This document shows, in pieces, positions 42,701 to 63,700 of a stretch of 64,000 bases of DNA. Below the pieces are notes generated by a model, which was not told the DNA's origin, made no database searches, and saw only the letters and a program-made list of their open reading frames with translations. Location: contig JABVCE010000002.1 in the NCBI GenBank assembly GCA_014905635.1, forward strand, positions 930,001 to 994,000, given 5' to 3'. The translations under genes and the position numbers were made by a program. Origin of the DNA: Scenedesmus sp. PABB004. Lineage: Eukaryota. The first letter of the stretch is position 1. Each line of letters opens with the position of its first letter.

Positions 42701-45296
42701 CCCGGGCCGGGCGGCCCGCACGGGCGCGCCGGCGCCCCGCCGACCCCGCGCTGCCCCGCGTGCGCCGCGGCGCACCAGCTCCTCGACCACCTCCACCGCG
42801 CCGCCGCCGCTGCACATGGTGAAGAGCAGGTCCAGCGCGCGGCGCCGGATGGAGACGTCTGGGTCCTTCAGGCAGGCCAGGATCGTCGGCTGCGCGGCGG
42901 GGCGCCGGGCCGGTGGGCGGCGGGGCCGGGCGCGGCGCGGCGCGCGTGCGAGGGGAGCAGCTCGCCGGCCGGCCGCCGCGCGGCACGGCGCGGCGCGGCG
43001 CGGCGCGGCGCGGGCGGCGCGCCTGGTGCGCGCGGATGCTCTCCTCGACCTCGGGCACGAGCGCGAGGCGCGTGAGGTTCTCCAGCGCGAGGTAGCGGAT
43101 GTTGGGCTCCTGCGCGCCAGACGCGGCCGCGGCGGCGGTCGGCCGCGCCCTGGCCCGGTGTGTGCGCGCGCGCCCGCGCCGCGCTCACGCCCGCGGCATG
43201 CCCATGTGCGCGGCGCGGCTGAACATGTGCCCCCCCCCCCACACACACACACTGCGCCGCGCCGCGCCTTGACGGACAGGAAGCGCCCCAGGCTGGTGAC
43301 GCTGCTGGCGAGCAGGTCGCGCGACGCGTCGAGCGCGAGGATGAGGGCGATCGCCTCAAACAGGATCGCGTGCTGCGCGTTGCTCTTGTTGATGGTCGCA
43401 GACTTGGCCGTCTCGCCGCACGCTGCGCCGGCGGCGGCGGCGGCGGCGCGTGAGCGTTGCGGGGTGTTGCGGGGTGTTGCGGCGCTGCAGTGCTGCCGCG
43501 CCGCCGGGTCTCACAGTTGAAGATGGTGACGAGCGCGTCGTGCAGCTGCTTCTGCGGCCCCGCGCCCTCCGGCAGCGGGAAGTACTGCAGCGCGCGCAGC
43601 ACCTTGGTCTGCGGCGGCGGCGCGGGCCGGGGCAGCGCGGCGGGGCGCCTCGCGCGCGCCGCCTCGCGCTGCGCGGCGCCACGCACAGCGCGGCGCGTGC
43701 CCCGCGCCGCGCGCCGCCGCGCCTGCAGCCATGGGCTGGCGATGCCGTAGTATGTGTAGTCGGGCGTGACGTCACGCAGGTACACCAGGCGCTCCAGCAG
43801 GCGCAGCAGCTTGCCATGGCACTGCTCGTACCCGGCTGCGCGCGCGGGGGGCGGACAGCGCGGCGTCGGCCGCGGCGCCGGCCGCGCGGCGGCGGCCGGC
43901 GCGAGCGCCCCGCGCGGGCGCGGCGCCGCACCGCTGGTCGTGCGGTTGCAGATGCCGAGCAGCAGCGTGACGCAGCTCAGCAGCAGCCCCAGGTCGCGCT
44001 CCTCGAGCAGCTGCGCCATCACGGGCGCGAACGAGTCCGCCGACACGAGCTGCGCGTCGGGCGGCGTCTTGCGCATGAGGCGCAGCAGGCACAGCGCCGC
44101 CTTCTTGCGCACCACCGCGCGCGCGACGCCGCTCTGCTGCGGGGCGGCGCGCGGGGGCGGCGCGCGGGGGCGGCGCGGGGGCGGCGCGGGGCGCGCGCGG
44201 GCGTTGGCGGCTGCCGCCGGCCCTGGGGCGCGCGCCGCCGCCATCGTGCAGCGCCGCGCCGCCCGCGTGCGGCGCACCAGCAGCTTCATCACGTCCGGCG
44301 TGAGCGCCTCCGCCATCTCCTGGCCGGCGACTGCGGGCGCGGGTGCAGGGCGCCTTCAGGTGCGGCGCCCGCCCGCCCGCCGCTGCCTGCCCCCCCCCAC
44401 ACCCTGTGGCCCCTGCCTCCGCCGCGCCCCCGCGCACTGTTGGCCACGAAGGTGAGCGCGAGGCTCTGGAAGGCCTCGTTCCTGCTGACCAGGTCGTTGT
44501 GGATGGCGTTGATGCCGAGGCGCAGGAACTCGTCCTTCTGCGGGGGCCGCACCCGACAGCGGCGGCGGCGGCGCGCAGCAACGTAAAGCGCTGCTCGCTG
44601 TGCGGTCGGCCCGCCGCCGCCGCCGCCGCCGCCTGGCGCGGGCGCCTTGGCGCCGCCGCCGCCGGCTGCGTCGCCCGCTCCGCTGCAGCAGCCCTGCTGC
44701 GCCGCGCCGCCGCGCACCTCGTTCATCAGGATCGAGCAGGCCATGTAGCCGACCTGCTTCTCCGAGTACCTGCGAGCCCGCGGCGCCCGCGGCATGAGCG
44801 GCGAGGCGGGCCGGCGGCGTGGCGCGGCGACCGCGCTGCGCCGCCGCACTTTGCGCTCGGGATGAGGTCGCAGGCCTGCTTGTGCCCGAACTCGACGTCG
44901 TAGCCCAGCATGTAGATGTAGAGCAGCTTCCAGACGTACTTCTTGCGGTCGTAGGCTGCGCGGGCGGCGGCGGCGGGTCGGCGCGCGCCGCGCCGCGCCG
45001 CGCCGCGCGGGGCGCCGCTGCTGCGCTGCGCCGATCGCCGCGCCGGCCCGCCGGCGCGCCTGTGAGCGTCTTCTTGTCGTCCCCGAACTTGGCACGGATC
45101 TTGGCGAGCTCCTTGTCGACGCGGCGCGTCTCCTGCTCCTTGTTCTGGCACGCCCGGATGTCGCTGATGAACACCTGCGCGCGATGGCCAGGGATCGGCG
45201 CCCCGCCGCCACGCCGATGCACCCCCAGCACCTCCACATCCAGCACCTCCCCAGGCGCACCTGCAGGCCCCGTATCGTCTGCCCCAGCTTCGCCAT
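39774..45296 (-). CDS. AP2A: AP-2 complex subunit alpha (alpha-adaptin)
   Basis: RGLQ|VFISDIRACQNKEQETRRVDKELAKIR, YDRKKYVWKLLYIYMLGYDV, YSEKQVGY, DYTYYGIASPWLQ, KDPDVSIRRRALDLLF, EELVLKIAILAEKFA, ELQQRATEY, and appendage GILYEDTFLQVG. Confidence 0.97.
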
Positions 45297-45723
45297 CGCA
45301 GCTGCCGCGCCTCCCGGCGCTCGCTGCCCGCGCGGGGCCGATCCCGGGGCTGCGGCGTGTGTGAGGCGGCCACGGCACGCGCGAGGGGCGGACGGGACGG
45401 CGGCCCGGCGGCGCGGCGCGCGGGGGGCGGGGCGCAGCGCGGCGGCGGTGCAGCGGTTGGCGTTCGGGCCGCGCAGGCGCGCCGCCGCGCTCGGGGCTGT
45501 GCTGCCGTCGCTTTCGTGGCCGATCTCGCAGAGGTGAAGCGGGCACGGCTCGTCAACTTGCACAATGGCAAGCACGTCGGCGCCCAGCACGCGGCGCGCG
45601 CGCGAGGGGTGCCGCCCCGGTGATGACAGGCAAGCAGTGCGCAGTCGCTCGTCCGCGCGCAAGTACCTACGGGTTCCCCGGGTGCAACAGTCACCGACCG
45701 ACCGACCGCCGAGCGCCGCCGCC

Positions 45724-48700
45724 CTACGGCGGCCCCTGCTGCGGCGAGCCGCGCGCGAGCACGGCAAACGGCGACGCCGGCGGCGGCGCCGGCGCGCCGA
45801 CGACGCCGCAGCCCGCCGCCTCGGCGGCGGCCTCGGCGGCCGCGCAGGCCTCGGCGCCGGCGACCTCGGCGTGCTGTGCCAGCGGCACCGCCGCGCCCGA
45901 GCCGCCGGAGCCGGCCGACCTGCCGCTCGTGGCGCGAGAGCCCGGCTGGCCGCCCGACATGCTGCCGCTGATGGAGCCGCCCGAGCGCGAGCTCAGCGAG
46001 TGCTCGCGCACCGTGGTGAGCAGGGTCGTCGACGGCGGGATGACCACGAGGCGGCCAGAGGACGTGCGGTAGAAGAATCCAGGGCGCTGCTGCGACGATG
46101 CTGCAGCTGGCCCGCCGGGGCCGCTGCCGGGCACGGTGGGCGCGGCGGCGGCGCCGCCGTCGTCGCCGGCGGGCGCCGCGGTCGCCGCGCCGCCGTTGGC
46201 CGCCTGCGCGTGGCGCGCGGCGACGGCGCCCGCGCCCACCGCGCCGGCCACGCGCGCAAAGGGCGACGACGAGCGTGGCGCGGCCGCCGGCGCCTGCTGC
46301 GCTGCGGGCTGCGCAAAGGGGCTGGGCGCGGCCGCGGGCGCCGCCGCCGGCGGCGGCTGGGACGCCGCGGCCGCCGCGGCCGCGGGCCGCGCCTGCGGGC
46401 GCGCGCCCCAGCCGCCCACCCAGCCGCGCAGCCCGGCGCCCCTGCCGCTGAGCTCGGGGGGCGCGGCGGGCACCGCAGACACCACGTGCACCGTGGGCGC
46501 GGGCGGTGCGCCGCTGCCCGCGGCGTCCGCTGGCGGCCCGGGCGCGCCGGGCGTGCCGGGCCGGGCGCCGCCGGCGGTGGGCGGCAGCGTGGCGCCGGCG
46601 CCGGCGGTGCCGCCGGAGCTGCGCAGGCCGCTGAGTGCGGAGGCGCTGCTGCTGGGCAGCATCGACAGCGCCATGCTGGGCAGCTTGTCGGCGAGGACCG
46701 AGGGCAGCGTACCCGTCGTCACGCTGCCCCATGGCTCGCCGCTGGCGGCGGCGCCGAGCGCGGCCAGGCCGGGGCCGCTCGCCGTCGTCGCGAGCGCCTC
46801 CACGTAGCCCGCCGCCGCCGCCGCGTCGCCGCCGGCGGCGCTGGGGCGCGCCGGCCGGTCGCCGCGCCGCGCGGCGCGGTGCACGGTGGCCAGGTAGCCT
46901 GCGATCGGCCCCGCGTCGCCCTGGGCGGCGTGGAGGTCGGCGACGTCGCCGTACGCGGCGTTGCTGCTGCTGCTGACGGCGACGTCGCCCTCGCTGCGGA
47001 AGAGCGACTCCGACGGCAGCGGCTCGTTGTCCAGCGGCTCGATCTCGCCCCGACCCCCGCCGCCGCCGCCGCCGCCGGGCCCAGGCGGGCCGTGCGGCGC
47101 AGCGAGCGGCGGCGCGGCGCCCCACTGCTGCCGCTCAAAGGGCGGCGCCTGCTGCTGGAGGTGGAAGGGCGAGGCGCGCGGCGGCGGCGCACCGCCGCCG
47201 CGGGCGTCGGCGCGCCACGCTGGCCGGGCGGCGGGGCTGCCGCCCGGCAGCGCGCCCGACACCTGGCGCACCGCCACGGCGTGCGCCCAGGGCTGATACT
47301 CGTCCTGCCCGCCCTCCGTCCCGCCGCTGCCGCCGCCGCTGCCGCGCAGCCGCGCGGCGCCGGCGTCGCCGCTCGAGCCTGAGGCGGCCGAGGAGACGCC
47401 GGTCCGCGACTCCAAGCTCGGACGGCTGGGCTGCCCCGCGCCCGGCACGCCGGCGGCGCCCTGCCCCGGGTAGGACCAGGTGGTGAGGCTGGGCGCCGCC
47501 AGGGTGCCGCTGGCGACCTCGCGCGCGTTGCGGTAGCGGTCCGAGTCGATGCTGGACCGGTCGGCGCCGCCCGCCCCGGCGGGCCGCCGCTCGCCGCCGC
47601 CGCCCCTGCCCGCAGGCACGGCCGCGGCCGCGGCAAAGGGGCTGACGGCCGCCGCCTGCGCCGCGGCGGCGGCGGGCGAGCCGGTGCTGCGAGTGCCGGC
47701 GCTGCTGCTGGCGGGCGGGTGGACCGTCTGCCCCGGCGGGCTGCCGACCAGCGCCGCGCCGCCGCCGCCGCCGCCGGCCGCGGCCGCGGCGGTGCGCGCG
47801 GCGGCGGCGCGCTGCTTCTCAGCGACGTAGAGGCGCTGCAGGGAGCGCAGCAGCTGCTGCACGGTGGGGCGCTGCTCTGGGTCCTGGTGCCAGCAGGCGG
47901 TCATGATGGCGGCGTACCCCGGCGGGCAGCCCGGCGGCAGCGGCGGGCGCCAGGCCTGGTATGCGATCATGTAGAAGATCTGGCCGATGGACAGGCCCTC
48001 CTCAAACACGCGCGCGCCCGTCAGAAGCTCCCACACTGCGACAGCGGGCGCGCGCGCGCCGCGCGGCGGCGCGGGCGCTCGGCGGCGCCAGGCGCGTGCG
48101 CGCAGGGCGCGCCACGCAGGCGCGCAGGCGCGCAGGCAGGCGGGCGCGCAGGCGCCGCTCACTCATCAGGCCAAACGAGTAGATGTCGGTGGCCGGCGTC
48201 ATGCGCCCCGTCAGGAGCAGCTCGCTGGGCATGTACGCGATGGTGCCTGTGGCGGCAGTTGCGGCGGTTGGCGGCGGTGGTTGGGCCGCACAGGCCGGCA
48301 GCCACACGCGCGTGGCGGCCGCGGCGGCTCGCGCGCGTGCGGCGCACCGTATGTGCGCGTTGAGATGTGCGTCGCGTCGAGGTCGAGCACGCGGCTGAGG
48401 CCAAAGTCGGTGATCTTGCACGCAAAGCCGCGCACGTCGCGCGTGGAGCCCTTGAGCAGCACGTTGGCGGTCTTGAGGTCGCCGTGCACCACGCCGATGG
48501 AGTGGAGGTAGTCCAGCCCGCTCGCCGTGTCCAGCAGCGCCTTGAGGATGCCCACCTGCGGCGCGTGGGCCGGGGTCGGCGGTCAGGCGGCGCGCTCGCG
48601 CGCACGCGCGCGGGCGCGCGCGGGCGGGCGGCGGCCCCGGCGGCGGCGCACCAGCTCCGGCCGCCCGTCCTCGCGCCGCACGAACCGCCCCTGGCTGATG

Positions 48701-51700
48701 GCGCGCTCAAGGCTGCCCTTCTCGCAAAACTCCATGAGCATCCACGTCTCCAGGGCCTCGCGCTGCTGCTCCGAGTTGCTGGCTGTGCTGGCGCTGCTCT
48801 CGGACGAGCCGTCCTCCTCCGCCCCGCCGGCGACCAGCTGCGGCGCGGCCGCGAGCGCAGCGCCGCTGCCGCCGCTGCCCTTGTCGGCCAGCCAGCTGCT
48901 GGCGAGGGCGTTGCGCTGGGCGATGGTCATGGTGCTGATGTGGTACGTCTGAACCTGCGGCCGGGCGGGCGGCAGGCGATCGAGGGGCGGCGCCGGCCCT
49001 GCCAGTGCGCACTGGCAGCGCAGCATGCTGCGCGCCCCGGCCGCGGCGCCGCAGGCCGGCGCCGGCGCCGGCCTGAGCGGCGAGCCGGGCCCCGGCGCCA
49101 CACCACGTTGGGGTGCGCGACGCTCGTGGCCAGGAGCGTCTCGTTGCCGACGCTGATGCACTTGCCGCCGCTGCTGGCGGTGCCGGGCGCGCCCTCGTGG
49201 TGCTCGATGATCTTCACAGCCACCGTCACCGCCTTCCACCGGCCTGCGGCGGCAGGCGCCCGCGCGCGGGGAGGCGGCGCTCACGCAGGCGGGCAGCCTG
49301 GCGCCAGGCTCTGGGCCGCACGCTGGGCCGCCGCCCGCCGCCGGCCCCGTGCGCAGCGGCGGCGGCGCCGCACCCTTGTAGACGCGGCCGTAGCTGCCGC
49401 GGCCCAGCAGGGGGCCGATCTTGAGGTCGCGCAGCACTGCCAGCTCCGACCGCGCCTTGAGCAGCGCCGGCACGCCGCGCGTGCGGTCAGCCAGGCGGGC
49501 GCTGCCGCTGGTGCTGGCGCCCGGCTCGCCACGCGCCGGGCTGGGCGAGGTGCCGCTGCTGCCGCCAGTGCTGCCGCCGCCGCCACTGCCGCCGCCGCCG
49601 CCGCCGCTGCCCGCAGCCAGGTCATCGCCGACGGTGGCGGTCAGCACTGTGGCGGTCGCGCTGCCGGCCGTGCTGCCCGCGCTGCCGTCGCCGCCCACGC
49701 CGCTCTCCAGGCTGTTCTCGCGCGTGGCTGCGAGGACGCTGGGCGGCGAGGCGCTGCCGGCCCTGAGCCGCGCCGCGCCCGCGAGGTGCGCGGCCACCGC
49801 CAGGCTGCTGGGCTCCGGGCCCGCCTGCGCGGCGGCGGCGTCCAGGCTAAGGCGCTCAAGCGAGCTCGTCTCAGCCAGCGTCATGGCACCGCGCGCCGTG
49901 CTGCCGCTGGCGCTGCGGCTTGTGCTGTGCCACATGATCGACGACAGGGGGCTGGGCGCAGCCTGGCCGGCGCCCAGGCCAAACAGCCCAGCCCCGCCCG
50001 CAGCGCCGCCGCCGCCGCCGCCCGCGCCAGCAAAGCCGAGCGCGCCCGGCGCGGCCACTGCTTCGGGCTGCGGCGGTGTGTGCAGGCTGCCGGGGGTGCT
50101 GCCGCCGCCCTTGTCGCTGCTGCTCGGCGGGGCGGACGGCGCCGGCGTGCCTGCGGCGGCCTGCGCGCGGCGGGCGGGGGCGAGCGGCGTCGGCGCGCGG
50201 CGCGGCTTGGGCGGCGCCGGCAGCCGGGCGGCGGCGGCCGCGGGCGCTGTGTGCCCCGCACCTCGGGGCGGCCCTGGTCGCGCGAGCGGCGCGTGTCGTC
50301 GCGGTCAGCGTAGCTGGCCAGCTGCAGCCGCCCACCCTCCAGGTCCTTGGCGCGGCGGGAGGCCGCCCGAGCGGCCGGCGCGGCGCGGCGGCGCCGCCGC
50401 CGCCTGTGCGCCAGCAGGCAGGCCGCCAGGCACGCGCCCAGCGCGGCCACTACAGCGATGGGCACCGCGATTGCCGCCGCCAGGCCGCCGCCCGAGAGGC
50501 CTGCGGGCGTGACCCGCACGTGCACGTTGAGGGCGGCGCGCGCGACGGGCCGCGCCGCGCCGGCGCCGCCAGGCTGCCGCAACGGGGGCCGCGGTGCGCG
50601 CGCGCACCCGGGCCGCGCGTGGCGTTGGGCAGGCAGACAAACGTGAAGTTCTGCAGCAGCGCAGTCGCGTTGCCGGCGGTGCTGCCGGGCGCGGTGGCGC
50701 TGGCGCTGCCGTTGATGACGGCGACGCGGACCGCCAGCGGCCCGACGACGCGGCCGGCCGTCGCGTTGACCGGCTCCACCCCCCGCTCGCCCCACTGCTG
50801 GCGCATGCCGAAGACCACCCTTGCCACGTACTGCTCGCACGTGTCGACGTCCGACGGGTCCGCAAACGCGACGCCAGAGTCGCGCAGCTCGATCTGGCGC
50901 GGCGCGGCTCGTGGGCGGGGCGGCGGCCGCGGCGGCGCGGAGCGGCGGCGCGGCGGCGCCACGCGCCGCACCGTGGCGTTGGGCGCGAGGCCGATGGAGG
51001 GCCACAGCGGGTAGCCGATGCCCGCGTTGCGCCAGGGCTGCGCAGGGCTGTGCGCGTAGCTGCCCGCGGGCGCGATGTTGGCCAGGACCACGCGCTCAAA
51101 GCTCAGCACGCCGCCGGGGCCGACGAGCATGGCGGAAGGCATGCTGCCAAAGTCGAGCGTCTGCCAGGCGAGCGGGTCGTCCGGCGGGCCGTCTGGCGGC
51201 GCGTGGGCGCGGCCGGGCCGCGGTCAGGGCTGGCACGGCGTGCGCGGCGGGGCTCGAGGCCGCGCCGCCGTGCTGCTGGCGCGGGCTACCGCCGCGCGCT
51301 GCGCGGGCGCACCGCTCGTGATGGTCAAGTTGGACTTGGACACCAGCTGCGCCACGCCGCCGCTCGCGGCAAACGCGCGCCGCCACGCCTCGCCGTCCAG
51401 CGCGACGCGGTCTGCGCGCGTGCGCCGGCGTGGGCGCGGGCCGGCACGGCGCGCGCCTGCGTGGGCGGGGGGCGGCAGACCGCGCGCAGCGCGGGCGCTC
51501 GGCTCACTCTGCAGGCGCACGCTGCTGACGGAGGGGTCGAGGCAGAACTGCTGCAACCCAGATGCGCGGAAGACGAGGCGCGCTGTCAGGTTGCTCGCGA
51601 CTGCGCGGCGGTGGCGGAGCGCTCACGACTGCGCGGCGGCGGAGCGCTCGCGACTGCGCGGCGCGGCGGCGGAGCGCTCGCGACCGGCCGCCGCCAGCCG

Positions 51701-51862
51701 TCGCGGCCGCCGCCAGCGCACCGCACCTGACGGAACGTCATCGGGAAGAAACTGGGTCGCTTGCTGGGCCGCCGTGGGCGCCGGGGCGAGCGCCGCGAGC
51801 AGCAGCGCGAGCAGCAGGGCCGTGCGCGGCGGCAGCGGCAGCGCCGCGCGCCGCCGCGCCAT
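45724..51862 (-). CDS. Receptor-like TKL Ser/Thr kinase, paralog A (signal peptide, ectodomain, TM, kinase, long low-complexity tail)
   Basis: Signal MARRRAALPLPPRTALLLALLLAALAPAPTAA. TM LAAAIAVPIAVVAALGACLAACLLA followed by a poly-Arg stop-transfer. Kinase motifs LLGRGSYGRVY, VAVK, HGDLKTANVLL, DFGLS and DIYSFG. Confidence 0.9.
51594..51684. repeat. Intronic minisatellite (three 24-29 bp units GCTC(G/A)CGACTGCGCGGCG...GCGGAGC)
   Basis: Visible tandem units in the first intron of kinase A. Confidence 0.75.
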
Positions 51863-52223
51863 GCCCGCCCGCCCCCGGTGCGGCGCGATCGTCGGGCACC
51901 CGGGCGGCGGCGGGGCGGCGGGGGCGGCGGGGGCGGCGGCGGTGCTGGTCGCCGACGACGCAGCACGCGCTCGCAGCGCACCGACGACGCGCCGACGCAC
52001 GCGGATGGCGGCGCGGGGGCCGGCGCGGGTCCTGGGGCGGTCTGAGCCTGCAGCGGCGGCGAGGGCGTGCTGGACCGCCCGGGAGGCGCGGGCGCGACGA
52101 GCGGTGCCTGCAAAAGCGCGAGCCCGAGTGCCGCGACTGCCCGGAAGGCCGCCGGCTCACCGCGCTGCGGAGAGTTGGGTGGATCCACATGACGTTCGCG
52201 CGTGCCGCGCGGCCTGGGCCGTG

Positions 52224-54077
52224 ATGCACGCCCGCGGCCTGCTCCAGCAGACGCAGCAGCAGAGTTCTGCCTGCCGCTGTGCCGCACGACGAGACCGGGC
52301 CGCCGCGGCCGCTCGCCGGCGCGCCGGCACCGCGGCAGCGGCAGCGGCCGAGCCGGCAGGGCGCGGCGCGATGTCGCAAGCCTGCGCCCCCGCGCAGGGC
52401 AGCTGCCTGGCGCCGCGGGCTGAGGTGCAGCTGCACGGCCCACCCGGCGCGCACCCGTTCCGAGTGGTCACGTTCAACGTCCTGGTGAGGCGGCGGCGCC
52501 AGCGGCAGCGGCGGCGCTCGCCGCTGCCCACTCATGCGGCGGAGCGCGCGGCCGCCGCCGCGCCGGCCCCGACCGCCCGGCGGGCGCTGTCGGGGGGCGC
52601 TTGCCGTGCCGGGGGGCGCTGCGGCGTCCAGCGCATGTGTGGCCGGCGCCGGCGCAGAGCGAGCAGGCTGCTGCGCGGGCGCCGACCCCGTCCCACGGCG
52701 CCGCGCCGCGCCGCCGCCGCGCGCGCGCAGGCCGACGGCCTGGCGCAGAGCGGCGACTTCGTCAAGGTCCCGCTCAGCTGCCTCGCGTGGGAGCACCGCC
52801 TGCCGCTCATCCTGCAGGAGGTGCGCGCGGCGGACGCGGACATCATCTGCCTGCAGGAGCTCAACCACTTTGGTGCGGCGGCGCCGCTGGTCGCGCGTGC
52901 GGCGCCGCGTGCAGCGCGCGCGCCCCGCCCCGCGCGCCCCGCCCCGCGCGCCGCCGCCGCTGAGCCGGGCCGCGCGCGCGCGCAGACACGCTCGCGGCCG
53001 CGCTCGTGCCGGAGGGCTACTGCTGTTTCTTCCGCGCCAAGAAGCCCTCGCCCGCGCTCAAGTTTGGCTTCCCCGCCGACGGCATCGCGCTCTTCTACCG
53101 CGGCGCGCGCTTTTCCGCGAGCCCAGCGCCCTCGGGTGAGCGCTCACGGCGGCGGCGCCGCCGCGCGTGCCGCGGCGCGCGGCACCGTCCCGCGCGTGGC
53201 ACCGGCACGCACACACCACGCGCACGCGCGCACGCAACGCAGGGTCGTGCTTCAACTCCATGGACGGCCAGCCCGCGGCGCAGGGCTTTGTGACCGCGCT
53301 GCTGCACGACAAGCTGTCGGGGCAGGCGCTGCTGGTCGCGGCGACGCACCTCAAGGCGAAGGCGGGCGCGGACAACGAGCAGACGCGCGTGCACCAGGTG
53401 CGGCGCGCCGCCGGCCCCGCCGCCGCGCCCGCCGCCGCGCCCGCCGCCGCGCCCGCTGCTGAGGGCCGTGCGCCGCTTCGCAGGCCTGCCAGCTCCTGCA
53501 GGAGCTGGAGAACATGGCCGACCGGCACCAGCTGCTGCAGCGGCAGCAGCAGCCGGCGGGCGGCAACGGCAGCAGCAGCAGCAGCAGCAGCAGCGTGCGC
53601 CCGCCGGCGGTGCTAGTGTGCGGCGACTTCAACACCACGCCGGACAGCGAAACGTTGCGGGTCATGCAGCAGCACGCCCTGGGGCTGCAGAGCATCTGGG
53701 AGGTGCCCTGGAGCGGCAGCTACAGCCCGCTCGGCGGCAACAGCAACGGCAACGGCAACGGCCGCGCCGCGAGCAACGGCAACGGCAACAGCGACCGCAG
53801 CGGCGGAGCGGCGGCCGCCGGCACCGCCAACGGCAACGGCAACGGGCGCGCCGCCGCGCACGCGGCGCAGGGGCGCGAGTTCACGACCTGGAAGTTCCGC
53901 AGTGGCGGCGGCGTGCAGCGCACGATCGACTACATCCTCTTCAGTGCGGGCCGCCTCTCGCCGCGCAGCCGCTGGCGCATGCTCAGCGAGGACGAGATCG
54001 GCCCGGACGGCCTCCCCAACCGGGCGTACCCCTCCGACCACATGGCCGTCGCGGCGCAGTTCGGCTGGCTCGAGTGA
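52224..54077 (+). CDS. Nocturnin-like EEP/CCR4-family phosphatase (second in-frame ATG at 52371)
   Basis: RVVTFNVL|ADGLAQ, LAWEHRLPLILQEV, DIICLQE, KKPSP...PADGIALFY, ATHLKAK, VCGDFN, FTTWKFR, TIDYIL, and LPNRAYPSDH. This is the nocturnin subfamily pattern. Confidence 0.9.
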
Positions 54078-54561
54078 GGCGGCGCCGGTAGGGGCGCAGT
54101 TTTGGGGCCGCCGGGGCGCGGCGGCGCACTCGCCTCCTGGGCGCGCGGGCGGCGCGCGTTTGCGGCGATTTTGTCGACCAGCCGCGGTGCATGTTTGCCG
54201 GCGCACTGTGTCTGTGGGAGTTGAAATCATCTGGCGGGCGCGGGGGCGGGACGGGACGCGTGCAGCGCTGGGCCGGAGCAGGCAACTGACACCTCGGGGC
54301 CCGAGGCTCGGGCGGCGGCCGGCCGCGGTTTTCCCCAACCCTCGCTCTGCCCCGCCCGCGCCCTCGCGCCCCACGCCTGAATCTCGCCCAGCCACGCCCA
54401 GGCGCCGAGCGCGCCGCCGCCGCGGGGGCCGCTGCCGCTGGCGCTGCCAGCGCAGCGCGCCGTGGCTGCGGCCAGCAGCACGCTGCCTGCCTCGCAGCAC
54501 TCCCAGGGACGCGAGCCGTGACTGCACGCCATTTCGCGCCTGCCCGACGGCCTGCGGCGCG

Positions 54562-57500
54562 ATGCGCAGCGCGGCGGCGGCGGCGCTGCTGCTGCTGTGC
54601 GCCGCCGGTCTCGGTCTCGCCCCCCGCGCCGCGCGCGCGCAGGTGGGCGCGGCGCCGCGGGTGTTGCGCATTTGCGGAATGCAGGGCGTGACTGGCGCCC
54701 GCGCGGCTCGGCGGTCGGCGGCGGCGCTGCTCACGCTGCTCGCGCTGCGCGCCACGCGCAGTCGCCCACGCAGTTCATTCCGGCCGAGCTCTCCGGCGAG
54801 GTTTCCGCAAGGCTTGTCTTCCGGCAGGCGGTGAGCCGCGCGGCCAGTCCGGCGGTGCGCGGCGCAGCACGGCGCGCTCGGGGCGCGGGGGAGGGGCCCT
54901 GCGGCGAGTCCGGCGGCCTGCGTGCGCCGCGCCGCGCAGGGCCTCGCTGCGGCCTGGGCCGACCCGACTGCGCGGCGCGCGGTCGTGCGCGGCCGCATCG
55001 CGCTCGACGCCCCCGCCTGGCGCGGCGCCTTTGCGGCGACCGGCGGCGTCGCGGCGATGGGCGCCGACCTGCCGGGCCTGCAGAACTTTACCATCACCGG
55101 CGACGCGTGCGCCACGGACGCGTGCGGTGCCGACGCCGACACCGGCGACGGCGGCACGCCGCCGCCCGCGGCACAGCACGCGCCGGAGATTGACTTGCAG
55201 GAGACGCCCGGCGTCATGCTTGTCCGCGGCGGCGGCCTCCTCGCGCTCACGCGCCTGCGCCTGTCCAACATCGCGCCGGCGTCGGCCTACGCATACTCCA
55301 ACTCCCAGCCCGTCAAGAGCGTCGGCATCGGCACAGGCACTTGGCCCACCATCGCGCTCGCCCCCAACGCGACGGTGCGCGCGGCCGGGCGGCGCCGCGG
55401 CCGCGCCGGCGCCCCGCGACCGCCGGTCCCCCGATCGCCGTCGCATGCGCGCAGCTGGTGCTGAGCGACGTGGAGATCACGTACCGGAACCCCGCGCCCC
55501 TGGACACCTGCGAGCAGTACAACGAGCGCGCTGTGTTCGGCCTCCAGCAGGTCGGCCGCCGGACGCCCCGCGGCCGACACCCCCGGCCGCCGCTGCGCGC
55601 GCTCACGCCGCGCGGCGCCCGCGCGCCGGGCGCGCGCGCGCAGGTGTACAACGCGTCCACGGTGCTGCCCATCAACGCGACCGCGGGCCTCGTGCGCGGG
55701 CCGCTGGAGATCCGCATCGTCGTGATCAACGGCAGCGACAACTCCACCCTCGGCCTCGCGCGTGGCGTGTTTACCAACGTGCGACCGGCCGGTCGCGCGC
55801 GCGCCGTCAGCGCACGCCGCCTCCCGCCGAGTGAGTGCCAAGCACGCGCTGCCGCGCCGCAGGTCTCCTTCACCTGCCTTCCAGCGCTGCCGCAGCCCGG
55901 CGCAGGTGCGTGCGGGTTGCGCGCACGCGGTGTGGCGGCGCGGGCCCCGTCCGGCGCCCGAGCCCGCCCGGCGCGTGCGCGCGTGACCCGCGTCGCAGGC
56001 GGCCTCGCCCCAGGCGCGCTCGCGGCGGCGGTCGCGGTGCCGCTGGCCGTGGCGACGGCGCTTGGCGCGGGCCTGGTGGCGTGCCTGGCGGCGCGCCGCC
56101 GCCGCCGCGCCGCCGCCGCCGCCGCCAACGCCGCGGCCGCGGCGCCTGGCGGCGCTGGCAAGGACCTGGAGGCTGGGTTGCCCTGGCACGGCGTTGCGCG
56201 GCGGGATGTGGACGGCTGCCGCGACACCGACGCCGAGTGCGATGGGGCGCAGGCCGAGCCCGGCCTCGCGCGTGGGCCGACGGGGGTTGCAGCGAGCGCC
56301 GCTGGCAGCACGCCCTACGGCAGCAGCTTCCCAGGCAGCAGTGCCTCGGCCGCGTCGTCCACGCTGCCCGCCATGGGCCTCGCCTCGGGCGGGCTTCACG
56401 GCGAGCCCGCCACTCCGGCGCAGCTTGCAGCGCTGGCAGCCACGCCGGGACGGGGCAGTGCCGACAGCGCTGCCTGGGCCCGCGGCCGGGCGCCATCCAG
56501 CGGCGAGACCGGCAGCTTTGCCCAGGCGCAGCACGCGAGCGCCGCGCCCCCGAGCGCTGGCAGCAGTGGCGGCGTGGGCGGCAGCGACGTCACGCGTGGG
56601 GGCAGCGGCGCCGCCACGTCAACGAGCCCGGGCGGCTCAGGCACTGCGGCGCAGGGCCGCACCAGCATCGGCGCTGCGGAGCGGGCCCAGGGCGCGCCCA
56701 CGTGTCTGGCGCTGCTCAAGGCGCGGTCCGAGCTGGCGGTGCTGCGCGACCTCAAGATCGGCCCCCTGCTGGGCCGCGGCAGCTACGGCCGCGTCTACAA
56801 GGGTGCGGCGCCGCCGCGCGTGCACGGCCGGCGGCGGGCGGCGGCCCAGCGTGCGGCCCAGAGCCTGGCGACCAGGCTGCCCGCCTGCGTGAGCGCCGCC
56901 GCCCCGCGCGCGGGCGCCTGCCGCCGCAGGCCGGTGGAAGGCGGTGACGGTGGCTGTGAAGATCATCGAGCACCACGAGGGCGCGCCCGGCACCGCCAGC
57001 AGCGGCGGCAAGCGCATCAACATCAACCGCGAGAGCATGCTGGCGACTAGCATGGCGCACCCCAACGTGGTGCGGCGCCGGGGCGCGCCGCCGCGCGGGG
57101 CCGGGTGCCAGCGCGCCAGTGCTGGCGCGCTAGCGCCAGCGCGGCCGCCAGGCTCGTGCTGCGTCCTGCGAGGCGCGCCGAGCGGTGCGCGCCCGCCTGG
57201 CCGCAGGTTCAGACGTACCACATCAGCACCATGACCACGGCTGAGCGCGCCGCCCTGGCCAACACCTGGGTGCTGGAGCAGGGCGCCGAGGGCGGCAGTG
57301 GCCAGGGCCAGCAGCGCGCGCGCGGCCGGCGCGGCTCCGGCCTGGCCGGCGCCGGCGGTGACGACGACGAGAGCGGCGGGAGCAGCCGCAGCAGCGACGG
57401 CGAGCAGCGCGAGGTGCTGGAGACGTGGATGCTCATGGAGTTTTGCGAGAAGGGCAGCCTCGAGCGCGCGGTGGCGCGCGGCAAGTTTGTGCGACGCGAG

Positions 57501-59984
57501 GACCGCCAGCCAGAGATGGTGCGCGGGGCCGGCGGCAGCGGTGGCCGGCGTACGGGCTCCGGGCGGCGCGCGCGAGCGCGGCGACCGGCGCCGAGCGCAC
57601 CGCCGCCTCGGCCGCCAGATTGGCATCCTCAAGGCGCTGCTGGACACGGCGAGCGGTCTGGACTACCTCCACTCTATCGGCGTGGTGCACGGCGACCTCA
57701 AGACCGCCAACGTGCTGCTCAAGGGCTCCACGCGCGACGTGCGCGGCTTTGCGTGCAAGATCACCGACTTTGGCCTCAGCCGCGTGCTCGACCTCGACGC
57801 GACGCACATCTCAACGCGCACATACGGTGCGCCACACGCGCGCGAGCCGCCGCGCCCGCGCCGCGCGCGCGCGCGTGGCTGCCGGCCTGTGCGGCCCAAC
57901 CACCGCCGCAACTGCCGTCGCAATTGCCGCCACAGGCACCATCGTGTACATGCCCAGCGAGCTGCTGCTGACGGGGCGCATGACGCCGGCCACCGACATC
58001 TACTCGTTTGGCCTGATGAGTGAGCGGCGCCTGCGCGCCCGCCTGCCTGCGCGCCTGCGCGCCTGCGTGGCGCGCCCTGCGCGCACGCGCCTGGCGCCAA
58101 CGGGTGCCCACGCCGCCGCGCGGCGCGCGCGCGCCCGCTGTCGCAGTGTGGGAGCTTCTGACGGGCACGCGCGTGTTTGAGGAGGGCCTGTCCATCGGCC
58201 AGATCTTCTACATGATCGCATACCAGGCCTGGCGCCCGCCGCTGCCGCCGGGCTGCCCGCCGGGCTACGCCGCCATCATGACCGCCTGCTGGCACCAGGA
58301 CCCAGAGCAGCGCCCCACCGTGCAGCAGCTGCTGCGCTCCCTGCAGCGCCTCTATGTCGCCGAGAAGCAGCGCGCCGCCGCCACGCGCACCGCCGCCGCG
58401 GCGGAGACCGCCGCCGGCAGCCCGGCGGGCACGGCCCGCGGAAGCGGCGGCGCGGCGGGCAGCCGCAGCGCTGGTGGCGGTGGCAGCTCCCTTGCGCCTG
58501 GAGAGCCGGCGCAGCGCGTGAGCAACGATTCCAACGCCTCGGACAGGTACAAGAACGCCGTGGCGGCGGCCTCGGCGGCCGGGGGCGAGGTGGCCGAGGG
58601 GGCGGGCGGCGCGAGCGCAAGCCCGCTGCGGCAGCTTGCAGCCAGTGTGAGCAGCTCGGGCGCGGATGCGCCGACCTCATGGGCGTACCCTGGGCAGCAG
58701 TCGGGCGACGGCAGCAGCGGCGGCATGGGCAGCAGAGGCTCGGCTCAAGCGGCGGTGCCAGGCGGCGGCCTCGCGCCCTCGGCGATCGCGCCCGCCATGG
58801 CTGTGAGCCACGGTGGGCGCGCGGCGCCCGCTGGCCAGCTCAGCTTTGCCGGCGGCTCAGCGGGCTCGGCCCCAGGCCGGGGCAGCCGCGGCCGCGGCAG
58901 CGGCGGCGCGCGCGGCAGCGGCAGCGCCGCCAGCGGGGACGAGCGGGAGGCTGACATCTACACGCCCTGGGCGCGAGCGGTGACGGAGCCGCGCGGCCCA
59001 GGCTCGCTGCACTCTGGCGGGCCCGGCTCTGGCAGGCCCGGCGCCTGGGGCGCGCCCGCGGCGGCGTCTCAGCTGACGCTGCAGGCGGCGGCGCAGCAGG
59101 GCGCCGCGTTTCAGCGGGTGTCGTCGCCCTTCGAGCGGCAGCAGTGGGGGGCCGCGCCGCCGCTCGCTGCGCCGCACGGCCCGCCTGGGCCCGGCGGCGG
59201 CGGCGGCGGCGGGGGTCGGGGCGAGATTGAGCCGCTGGACAACGAGCCGCTGCCGTCGGAGTCGCTCTTCCGCAGCGAGGGCGACGTCGCCGTCAGCAGC
59301 AGCAGCAACGCCGCGTACGGCGACGTCGCCGACCTCCACGCCGCCCAGGGCGACGCGGGGCCGATCGCAGGCTACCTGGCCACCGTACACCGCGCCGTGC
59401 GGCGCGGCGGCGACCGGCCAGCCCCGCAGGCGGGGGCCGGCGCCGCCTGGTCCGGCGGCGCGGCCCCGGCGACGGCGGCGGCGGCGGCGGGGTACGTGCA
59501 GGCGATTGAGCTGGCGGCCGCGCCGCCGCAGCCGCCGCTCGGCGCGCCGGCTGCGCCGCGGGCGATGCTGGCGCCGCGCGCGCTGCCGGGCAGCGCAGGC
59601 GGCGGCGGCTCGAGCGTGTGGTGGCCCAGCGCGTCGACGGGCACGATGGCCTCGGTCGTCGCGGGCGCGAGCAGCGCCGGCCTGAGCAGCTCCGACCTCG
59701 GGCTGGGCGGCTCGCGCGCGCCGAGCGGCGCGCCCAGCTCGCTGCTGACGAGCCCCGGCCCGGGCGGCAGCGGCGCGGCGCCCTGGACCGCCAGCGGCAG
59801 CTCCGCGGGCGCGCCGCGCGCCGGCGGCGGCGCGCACAGCGCGGCCGGCGCGGCCGGCGCGGCCGGCAGCGGCGGCCCCGGCGTGCGCGCCGGGCTGCGC
59901 AGGCTGGTGGTGGGCTGGGGCGGCCGCGGCGGCAGCCCCACCGCCTCGCCGCCGGGCAGCCCTGTGGCGCAGCGGCAGGCCTGA
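54562..59984 (+). CDS. Receptor-like TKL Ser/Thr kinase, paralog B
   Basis: Signal MRSAAAAALLLLCAAGLGLAPRAARA. Ectodomain homologous to paralog A (NIAP, WPTIALAPNAT, DTCEQY, NATAG, VING, FTCLP). TM followed by poly-Arg. Same kinase motifs as paralog A. Confidence 0.9.
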
Positions 59985-60287: not shown

Positions 60288-60649
60288 ATGGCGTCCTCTG
60301 ACGCCAACCCGCTGATCGAAGCCCCGCACTTTCCGCCTGCCTTCCCGCCGGGTGGGCGGTGGGGCGCGTTCCTGGACGGCGCCGGGCGGGACCAGAGCAG
60401 CGGCCGGGGCGCGGGGCACCCCTTCCCGCACCCGGCGCACCCGCAGCGGCCCTGGACCGCGCCGGCGCCGCCGGGCGCCTGCCAGCAGCTCGCCGCGCCC
60501 CGGCCTGTCAGCGGCCTGCCGGCGGGCGGCCAGCCACACGGCTGGCCGGGCGCGCAGCCCGGCGCCGCCAGCGCGCCCTGGCTGCCCGGCGGCGCCGCAC
60601 CGCCGCAGGGCCAGCCCTCGCAGCAGGGTGGGCGATGGCACCAGCAGGG

Positions 60650-60706
<57 letters not shown>

Positions 60707-63700
60707 GCAGCAGGGCTGGCCGCAGGAGCAGCAGAGCTGGCGGGGCCGGGGGCCTGGGCAGGGGCGCGCGCCCGTGGCGTGGGCGTGCGGCGGCAACGAC
60801 GACGACGACGACGACGACGCTGACCTTGAGCTCCCCGACGACGACCTGGATGCCCTGCTGGACGCCGGCGCGCGGCAGCTGCGGCCTGCGGCGCCCGCGC
60901 ACGGCGCCGCCGCCCAGGGACCGCCCCCGCAGCCCGGCCAGCCCTGGGCAGGCCGGAGCGCGAAGCCGCAGTGGCCGCAGCAGCAGCCTCAGCGGTGGCC
61001 GCAGCAGGACGAGCAGCAGCCGCCGTGGCCGCCGCAGCGGTGGCCGCAGCAGCAGGAGCAGCAGCAGCAGTGGCCGCCGCAGCAGCTGCAGCCGCGTCAC
61101 ATCAGCTGCGTCCCGCCGCCGCCGGGCGTGCTGCTTGCAGAAGAGGAGCAGGCAGCGCCGCGGCCGCTGGGCGCCTGCGCGCCGGGCGCGGCCGACGCCG
61201 GCGCCGCGACCACCAGGTGGGCGCCCGCCGGCGGGCGCGGCGCGGCGCAGCCGGTCAGGCTCGTCAAGCCGCAGGCCCCGCCGGCTGGCGGCGCAGCCGG
61301 GGCTGGCGCTCCACAGACGGCCGCGCCGCTGCCCTGGGGCCAAGGCGGCGGCCGGGGTCGTGGCCGCGGCCGCGGCAGGGCGGGCCGCGGCAGGGGCGGC
61401 GGCGGCGGTGGCAGCAGTGGTGGCGGCAGCGGCGGCAGCGGTGGCGGCGGCGGCGGCAGCAAGTCGGCGGCCGCCGCCAAGCAGGCCGGCGGCATCACGT
61501 TTGAGTTTGTGCGCGGCGCGCCGCCCGGCCCCGCGCCCAAGCTCACGCAGGCAACGATCCACGACATGCTCGCGCGCCACGTGCAGCAGGCCAGCAGGCA
61601 GGAGCAGCAGCCAGGCGGCGCGGCAGAGCTGCCGGCGCCGGCGCAGGCGGCGCCGGTGCCGGCGCCGGCGGTGGGCAGCAAGCGCAAGAGCAGCGCCGCG
61701 GCAGGCGGCGCGGCGCGGGGCGGCGCCGCCGCAGGCGACGCGGCGGCGGCGGCGGTCGGCCGCAAGCGCCGCAGCAGCAAGGCGGCTGCGGCTGCAGAGG
61801 TGGCCGAGCAGGCGCAGGCGGACGCGACGGAGGCGCTGGACCTGTGGCGGCTCGACCCGGCGGCGACCGGGGACAGCGCGCCCGCGGCCGGCCCGCACGT
61901 GCTCGACCTGCGCAGCAGCGCGGTGCGGGCGCAGCTCCAGCAGCAGCTGGCCGCGGCCGAGGCCGTCGGCGTCGGCCTGCTGCTGGTCCGGCGCGGCGCC
62001 GGTGCTGGCGGTGGCGCGCAGCACTTCACCAGCCTCGCGCCGCTCACCAAGGCGCAGCTGGCCGCGCTGCGCAAGGCGGCGGCCGCGGGCAAGCGCGCAG
62101 CCGCGGCGGCGGCGGCGGCGGCAGTCGGGGAGGCCGACGGCGAGGCGGAGGAGGGCGACGCTGCGGGCGGCGAGGACCCGGGCGACGCGCTGGTGGGCCT
62201 CGCGCTCATGCCTGCGTCGGCGGCCCACACGCAGCGCCTGGCCGCGCCGGGCGGGCTGGGGGAGCGCGCGTGCAGCATGTTCTTCTTGCCCGCCGGCGCG
62301 GGCGGAGAGGCGACGGGCCCGCCCGAGGTGCCGGCCGGCGCGCTGCGCCTGCTGCGCGAGCTGCTGCGCGGCGGCGCGGGCCGGCGGCCGTGCGTGGTGT
62401 CCAACGCCAAGGGCGTGCTGGCGCGCCTCGCGGGCGTGGGGCTCGACCCGCCGGCGGCGCGCGACGTGGGCGCGCTGGTCGACCCGGAGGTGCTGGGCTG
62501 GCTGCTCGACCCCCAGCTGGTGCAGGACAGCAAGGCCGAGGTGTATTGCCTCGCGCCGCAGCTCGAGCGCCTCGGCCTCGCGGTGAGCGGGGGTTGGGCG
62601 GGGCGGCGGGGCAGCGGCGCCAGGCGGAGCAGGCTGTCCGCCGCGCCGCGCCGCGCCGCCGCCGCCCCATGCTGCCGCCGCCGCGCGTGCAGGCCCCCGG
62701 CGTCGGCGCCGGCGCGCCGCTGGAGCGGCTCCACGCGCAGCTGCAGGCGTCGCTGGCGCTGTCGGGGGTGCTGATCAGCCGGCTGCGGGGGCACGTCGCG
62801 CCGGCCGCGATACAGCTCGAGATGAAGGCGCGGCGCGGGGCGCGGGGCGCGGGGCGCGCCGTGTCCTGCAAGCCGCGCCGGCCGTCCTGCGAGCCGCCGC
62901 TGCCGCCGCGCGCAGGTGGCGGCCGTCCTGGCGCGGATGGAGGTGGCCGGCGTGGGCGTGGACCCGCGCCAGCTGCTGCGCCACCGCCCCGCGCTGCTCG
63001 CGCGGCAGGCCGCCATCGCGGCGCACGCCGCCGAGATCGTGGGCCGGAAGTTCAACATCGCCAGCGCGTCGCAGCTCGCCGTGGTGCTCTACGAGGACCT
63101 GGGCCTGCCGCCGCCCGCGGGAGGTGCGCCGGCGGGGGAGGCGCCCTGCGCGCCGGGGCGCGCCGGCGCACCGCGGGTGCACCAAGGTGCGCTGCACCCC
63201 GCCCGAGGCCGGCGGGCGCCGCGCCCGCCTGCGCGCGCAGGCGGGCGCGGCGCCGCCAAGACGCACCTGCCCACCGACGAGGCGTCCCTCAAGCAGCTCG
63301 CGGCGCTGCACGAGATGCCGGGGCTGGTGCTCGAGCACCGGTGCGGCCGCGCCGCGCCCGCCCCGGCGGGCCCCGCCCGCAGCCGCCGCGCCGCGCCGCG
63401 CCGCCGCCGCCGCCCACGCACCGCGCAAACGACTGCTGCACACCACCGCCGCCGCCGCCAGGTGCGCGGCCAACGTGATGAGCAGGTGGATGGCGCCCCG
63501 CTGGGTGCAGCGCGCCGCCGCGGCGCTCGCCGGCGGCGGCGCGCCGCGCGTGCGGTGCAGCTGGAACCAGCTCCAGACGTCGACGGGGCGGCTCTCGAGC
63601 AGCGCGCCCAACCTGCAGGCGGTCACCAAGTACACGATCGACGCCCTGCACGCGACCCACGCGCCGCACGCCGCGCCGGCGCCGCACGCCGCGCTCGTGA

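Follow-up and report, generated by a model that had tools for sequence, protein, structure and literature searches.

Receptor-like kinases (RLKs) with ectodomains labelled 'Pectin lyase-like' have been catalogued in chlorophyte algae by computational annotation, and the label occurs 931 times in one file of the covered part of the supplement (PMC12757656). Interlocus conversion between neighbouring RLK paralogs has been reported in plants for Arabidopsis OAK (PMC3136440) and for the CRKs (PMC6368629); in the covered parts of these two reports, the copies described are recent and in tandem, conversion fades as copies diverge, and the OAK tract lies mostly in the ectodomain. Here we analysed a head-to-head pair of receptor kinase genes, A and B, in a 64,000-nucleotide stretch of Scenedesmus sp. 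PABB004 DNA (contig JABVCE010000002.1, positions 930,001 to 994,000; hereafter the window), which an original prediction made from the letters alone had interpreted as a variable-sensor, constant-output receptor system. Our favoured explanation, to which we assign a probability of roughly 0.7, is that A and B arose by an old inverted duplication of a single-pass TKL receptor kinase of chlorophytes whose ectodomain is pectin-lyase-like (a short beta-helix), and that their kinases have been repeatedly homogenised by gene conversion.

Conversion tracts and the age of the pair

The likeness of A and B is patchy. Three tracts, at the kinase start, in the kinase C-lobe and in a 90-codon block of the tail (tracts I to III, Table 1), are 97-99% identical in amino acids with a synonymous divergence (dS) of 0.041, 0.048 and 0.042, while the six other A/B regions are 36-66% identical with dS of 0.44-0.86. 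The original prediction missed that the likeness of the kinase region runs through introns and silent sites: introns 7, 10 and 11 are 95%, 86% and 96% identical, and the other four homologous introns (8 and 9 within the kinase, and two on the ectodomain side) are 62-74% identical, against a background of 60 ± 5% with a maximum of 71% (n = 114 non-homologous pairs). The longest exact run between A and B is 158 nt, compared with at most 51 when the columns were shuffled 2000 times. The tracts hold scattered differences and indels and are not 100% identical, and no third near-identical kinase copy that might be a donor was found among the 40 scored of 47 candidates. Such tract-wise identity, including silent sites and introns and accompanied by tree discordance between regions, is the pattern of concerted evolution. 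To judge from these sequences, the constancy of the kinase comes from gene conversion, being copied rather than merely conserved. 'Different sensor, same kinase' fits the sequences, as the prediction of a variable sensor with constant output would have it, but the constancy is that of converted tracts with dS of about 0.04, introns included.

Tetradesmus obliquus carries orthologs of both B (P0001-P0003) and A (P0163 and P0164), and in both assemblies the two are two gene numbers apart with one gene between them (OEZ85_011898/011900; Sobl393 1583/1585). When four-taxon sites were counted over the A and B of the window and of Tetradesmus, 21 sites in the ectodomain grouped the paralogs, 3 grouped the species and 5 did otherwise, whereas the kinase C-lobe gave 15 species-grouping, 0 paralog-grouping and 0 other sites; the counts for the remaining kinase were 1, 0 and 0 at its start and 3, 3 and 0 in its middle. 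Approximately unbiased (AU) tests rejected ortholog clades for the C-lobe (8 rows; p = 3e-4 and 2e-5) and species clades for the ectodomain (10 rows, which omit Myrmecia, Symbiochloris and one fragment; p = 4e-3 and 3e-6). Several branches of the trees were moderately supported (bootstrap 84-97), and alignment A2, in which C-terminal fragments were misplaced, was not used. Because the ectodomain groups by paralog and the C-lobe by species, the pair is likely to be old and its C-lobe to have been converted independently in at least two lineages, a conversion history that we regard as very probable. The A and B C-lobes of Tetradesmus are 89% identical in both assemblies. Three points count against extending conversion to that lineage: the comparison there is one of proteins, not of DNA, the Tetradesmus A and B N-lobes are not homogenised (80%), and the gene order is taken from gene numbers rather than from strands.

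The history and architecture of the pair, namely its age, its mosaic structure and the discordance of its trees, can be read from the DNA and the homologs; for the mechanism, we infer intrachromosomal non-crossover conversion between the inverted copies, which lie 7-12 kb apart. The duplication would be older than the split from Tetradesmus and Flechtneria, and the ectodomains, the juxtamembrane regions and most of the tails would have diverged since then, tracking their orthologs. The kinase exons evolve slowly and would still be similar enough to recombine, so that conversion could keep homogenising them, introns included, as separate events here and in Tetradesmus obliquus. The inverted orientation, the 7-12 kb spacing and the slow evolution of the kinase may all favour this process.

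Gene models and the class of the ectodomain

The two divergently oriented paralogs around a nocturnin gene that had been predicted are supported by 12-exon models with GT-AG introns throughout and by a spliced nocturnin-like gene of 384 aa (Table 1; exon boundaries were chosen manually and verified with a script). From the gene models and hydropathy, A and B both have a hydrophobic signal-like N-terminus, an ectodomain of ~250 aa, and a single transmembrane segment with a poly-Arg stop-transfer, followed by a long low-complexity juxtamembrane region before the kinase and a long low-complexity tail after it. The window gene models place signal peptide, transmembrane segment and intracellular kinase in one predicted transcript, and complete transcript open reading frames (ORFs) of related algae, from Enallax (P0004, P0005 and P0007) and Flechtneria (P0161), join the 5' exons to the kinase exons; for the family, this answers the objection that the two sets of exons might be unjoined in transcripts. 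The sequon-rich character of the ectodomains (N-X-S/T), the blocks NIAP, WP(S/T)IxLAPNAT, DTCEQY, NATAG, VING and FxCLP in both of them, and HGD instead of HRD in both kinases (HGDLKTAN) were all recovered as predicted. The B introns between LQQ and VY and between FTN and VS are indeed missing from A, and the intron difference is larger than claimed: upstream of the transmembrane segment, 2 intron positions are common to A and B, 3 are found only in A and 4 only in B.

The 5' halves (50160-51862 and 54562-55999), with 2 shared and 7 unshared introns, therefore show a high intron turnover. One further unshared intron lies in the juxtamembrane region of A, and all five kinase introns are common to both genes. 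In B-type ectodomains, a loop insert (B exon 3, 54940-55374) carries a CxxxxC pair; neither window A nor Tetradesmus A has this insert, and the first conserved ectodomain Cys is likewise missing from Tetradesmus A.

Table 1. Features of the A/B locus, in window coordinates.
Feature	Position	Strand	Details
Gene A, receptor kinase	45724..51862	-	1635 aa; 12 exons, all GT-AG, single ORF; orthologs P0161, P0163, P0164
Gene A exons 1-6	51862-51727, 51600-51508, 51411-51313, 51192-50972, 50893-50608, 50500-50262	-
Gene A exons 7-12	50160-49374, 49243-49104, 48954-48652, 48555-48348, 48246-48163, 48035-45724	-
A ectodomain	50608..51766	-	aa 33-277; predicted short parallel beta-helix and alpha/beta cap; 8 sequons; Cys pair (DTC, FVC)
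A transmembrane segment (approximate), then poly-Arg	50400..50490	-	hydropathy
A TKL kinase domain (approximate limits)	47830..49425	-	HGD at 48486-48478
Gene B, receptor kinase	54562..59984	+	1414 aa; 12 exons, all GT-AG, single ORF; orthologs P0001-P0003, P0012
Gene B exons 1-6	54562-54642, 54762-54830, 54940-55374, 55455-55550, 55644-55778, 55863-55905	+
Gene B exons 7-12	55999-56802, 56930-57069, 57207-57518, 57619-57826, 57936-58019, 58147-59984	+
B ectodomain	54640..55905	+	aa 27-285; predicted class as in A; 7 sequons
B transmembrane segment (approximate)	56016..56093	+	hydropathy
B TKL kinase domain (approximate limits)	56750..58350	+	HGD at 57688-57696
Tract I in A (kinase start and intron 7)	49161..49468		inverted partner in B 56708-57012; intron 124/131 identical; dS 0.04
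Tract II in A (kinase C-lobe and introns 10, 11)	47754..48558		inverted partner in B 57616-58428; introns 94/109 and 122/127 identical; dS 0.05; exact run 158 nt
Tract III in A (low-complexity C-terminal tail)	46823..47157		inverted partner in B 59112-59446; 88 aa identical; dS 0.04; exact run 158 nt
Nocturnin-like EEP gene, between A and B	52371..54077	+	5 exons, 384 aa; PF03372 match; nocturnin chains E 5.5e-16

The original prediction could not assign the ectodomain to a known family. Sequence comparison gave no Pfam family in the six ectodomain exons at E<=1, and among 103 aligned ectodomain members Pfam matched 13 families, each from a single member (best E 0.016). Two weak PDB profile matches, one to ThreeFoil (E 0.021) and another at E 1.6, were rejected. 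Language-model (Atlas) neighbours were Beta_helix, Chlam_PMP and Pectate_lyase_5, with scores of 0.89-0.91 and 0.76-0.80, which serve as leads only. A predicted model of the Enallax ectodomain (mean predicted local distance difference test, pLDDT, 66; predicted template modelling score, pTM, 0.70) was closest in structure to the SRRP adhesin 5nxk (Z 7.9, root-mean-square deviation (rmsd) 2.7, 121 aligned residues; the caution line is Z 8). Its next matches were tailspikes, lyases and an autotransporter, which we take to be beta-helix folds. We read the secondary structure of the models as roughly four rungs and then an alpha/beta cap that holds a Cys pair. Foldseek gave no match at E<=0.001 for either the Enallax or the Tetradesmus A model; polymerase-beta-like Foldseek rows were rejected with TM-scores below 0.2 by query length.

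Both orthologs of the pair in Tetradesmus are already listed as RLKs with 'Pectin lyase-like' ectodomains (A0A383VHP9 and A0A383VII3; Tables S1 and S2 of PMC12757656, as covered); A0A383VHP9 is P0164, and the Table S1 row of A0A383VII3 agrees with P0003 where it is shown. The ectodomain thus belongs to a recognised, functionally uncharacterised class, and the description of it as unrecognised does not hold. The text of that survey that was covered treats neither the A/B pair nor its non-RD status; gene conversion was not looked for there.

We consider the pectin-lyase-like, short beta-helix class a probable reading of these models and labels, and several observations pull the other way. The Z-score of 7.9 is under the tool's own caution line, so that the support for the fold is moderate. 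The Tetradesmus A model (pLDDT >89 over most of residues 91-250, with residues 1-64 without resolved structure) again matches 5nxk best, but with Z 3.8, rmsd 3.0 and 80 aligned residues, followed by unrelated folds, and both folded ectodomains are orthologs rather than the window proteins. In the covered part of PMC12757656, unrelated labels are also given to the C-terminal part of the ortholog ectodomains.

As to what the ectodomain does, the columns conserved over 152 rows are mainly aromatic, Gly, Pro and Asn, with two Cys. In active pectate and pectin lyases, the groove has conserved acidic residues that bind Ca and conserved basic residues for catalysis. The conserved charged columns here are few (R53 in 10/10, D67 in 10/11, R164 in 10/13 and D200 in 9/13), and they leave room for catalysis, contrary to the binding role that we favour. 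For the ectodomain, a role as a non-catalytic glycan or glycoprotein binder has about even odds, and the chance that it senses a glycan or the wall is put equally at one in two. We envisage that it would bind a wall or matrix glycan or glycoprotein without catalysis and thereby activate an MLK-like Ser/Thr kinase, and that the two receptors would have interchangeable catalytic cores while differing in ligand preference and in their docking regions (juxtamembrane, kinase insert and tail).

The profile search with the ectodomain returned 190 matches at E<=0.001, and most of the 150 listed were exon-sized fragments; the longer ones include Chromochloris P0015, Symbiochloris P0128 and Myrmecia P0048. 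Ectodomain identity between genera is 50-53% for A with A and 50% for B with B, compared with 33-46% for A with B; window A and B are 46% identical. Because orthologs are 50-53% identical between genera and A and B 46%, the ectodomain is conserved by lineage and not hypervariable. Four protein searches found only A and B as ectodomain copies in this genome, which is a lower bound, and so the idea of a variable sensor family is not carried by these data: the ectodomain tracks its orthologs and is not expanded.

Several homologs have peculiar models. In P0001 and P0002 of Tetradesmus obliquus, the nocturnin-like gene is fused to receptor B, and in P0003 B stands apart and has an N-terminus of its own; the fused models are probably mis-annotated, and they disclose the synteny. 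In Myrmecia P0048, two stretches match the ectodomain and the model has neither transmembrane segment nor kinase, possibly as a secreted or truncated relative. The Enallax transcriptome (P0004, P0005, P0007 and P0013) has one ectodomain-kinase with two tails, one further paralog, and an isoform whose ectodomain carries a 12-residue insert with a Cys pair.

The nocturnin-like gene starts 508 bp from the start of A and stops 484 bp before the start of B. Because this whole gene intervenes and the two starts are 2.7 kb apart, A and B have no common promoter interval. On the left, an adaptin-like gene, presumably AP-2 alpha, begins 427 bp past the A stop (about 42900-45297, minus strand; weak Adaptin_N match, E 0.003). 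On the right of B, a long Gln/Pro-rich open frame (60288-62774, plus strand) has no Pfam match and a PDB match that spans 27 residues only.

Alternative readings of the pair

The pair had been proposed to be a pattern-recognition-like immune receptor pair with variable sensors and constant output, flagged by its non-RD kinases. In its favour are HGD in both kinases and the enrichment of non-RD kinases among plant and animal immune receptors (PMC8872720, as covered), together with a head-to-head order that is kept and an ectodomain that diverges faster than the kinase. However, the kinomes behind that enrichment have 9-29% non-RD kinases, and the link therefore weighs little here: readable catalytic loops were non-RD in 10/10 of the 15 closest kinase loci in the genome (5 were not parsed), with 6 HGD (A and B included), 3 HCD and 1 HND, in a set biased by the HGD of the query itself. 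As a flag of pattern recognition, non-RD status is uninformative in this genome, and another paper, PMC10463195, does not mention green algae, Chlamydomonas or pectin in the part covered. One of these neighbours is a second head-to-head inverted TKL kinase pair (C29:169772-177020) with HCD loops, 96% identity over 1 kb and 87% over another 1.9 kb, in which no signal or transmembrane segment was seen by eye; this pair appears to be a duplicate that is younger or has been homogenised more completely.

The kinases themselves have GxGxxG, VAVK, the alphaC Glu, HxDLKxxN, DFG and xPE, and match PF07714 and PF00069. The solved chains nearest to the kinase of the homolog P0015 (Chromochloris) are MLK4, MLK1, Eph, Roco4 and CTR1, and none of 51 sequences at E<=1e-20 bears an RLK/Pelle or IRAK name, a comparison with nearest solved chains rather than a kinome tree; the kinase thus leans towards MLK rather than RLK/Pelle. 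Further points against immunity are the two copies found, the conservation of orthologous ectodomains across genera and the separate promoter intervals. Ectodomain dN (0.53) is also below dS (0.61), although dS is compressed by a GC content at third codon positions (GC3) of 91-94%, because of which we set dN/dS aside as a test of diversifying selection. Prediction of a complex between the two Tetradesmus ectodomains, A and B, made without alignments, scored 0.03 and gives no evidence either way. The immune reading is weak, unsupported and unlikely, and we do not take the pair as evidence of algal immunity.

Crossover in addition to conversion between the inverted kinase repeats would invert the middle segment, from ectodomain through nocturnin to ectodomain, and swap the tails, so that an ectodomain would alternate between two tails. 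The near-identical inverted arms have exact runs of up to 158 nt, and in Enallax an ectodomain-kinase identical for 887 aa is found with the A-type tail motif (P0005) or without it (P0004). However, the A-type motif stays with the A ectodomain in all three clear A genes (window, Tetradesmus and Flechtneria) and is missing from both clear B genes, and hence these lineages give no sign of a tail swap. The Enallax ectodomain does not fall clearly with A or with B, and assembly chimerism via the shared kinase block, or alternative last exons, fits its two tails equally well; a chimera is the more likely explanation. We regard inversion as very improbable. If it were true, repeats acting as recombination arms would, besides converting, invert a 7-10 kb segment and rewire a glycan-sensing ectodomain to either C-terminal tail; a eukaryotic alga would then switch receptor output by DNA inversion, and the Enallax two-tail transcripts would be products of this switch.

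The near-identical tracts might also be an assembly artefact in which reads of the two copies were mixed, as the genome is a 40-Mb draft of 80 contigs and the GC of the window is about 79% (range about 75-84%); the scattered differences and indels within the tracts, and the species-wise grouping and 89% identical C-lobes found in both Tetradesmus assemblies as well, make this very improbable. That purifying selection alone, or recent duplication with fast ectodomain divergence, produced the identity of the kinases would agree with C-lobes that are 81-86% identical even between species, but protein-level selection is unable to equalise introns and silent sites, kinase introns 8 and 9 are at background identity and the ectodomains group by paralog across genera, and we give it hardly any weight.

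Significance and comparison with known systems

With an old, repeatedly converted duplicate as the preferred explanation, the locus would be a clean two-gene case in which recurrent conversion keeps the catalytic core interchangeable while the sensing domain stays paralog-specific across genera. It would allow a test of whether homogenisation is selected or simply follows from sequence conservation between inverted neighbours. Kinase-domain trees would misassign orthology for these algal RLKs, and the pair, compact and low in copy number, would be a candidate in the search for the ligand of a common pectin-lyase-like algal ectodomain.

The closest system is that of the chlorophyte pectin lyase-like RLKs, in which direct Tetradesmus orthologs of A and B are listed and which share signal peptide, one transmembrane segment and kinase (PMC12757656, as covered). 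Parallel beta-helix proteins, such as the binding region of the L. reuteri SRRP (5nxk), PL1, PL3 and PL6 lyases and phage tailspikes, give the best rows for the Enallax model, but only ~120 residues align with these adhesins and lyases and there is no sequence-level match. The non-RD RLK/Pelle receptors XA21, FLS2 and EFR are likewise single-pass and lack Arg before the catalytic Asp, but the A/B kinase is an MLK/Raf-like TKL by its nearest solved chains, has no leucine-rich repeats, and has non-RD neighbours commonly among the TKLs. Within the library searched, we found no account of conversion in the A/B pair, and the titles on RLK conversion concerned land plants. In contrast to OAK and the CRKs, conversion between A and B is limited to the kinase and one tail block, takes place in a pair of inverted genes that duplicated long ago, and has recurred in more than one lineage. 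The receptor class is thus already catalogued, and the kinase-restricted recurrent conversion is apparently an undescribed case of a known process.

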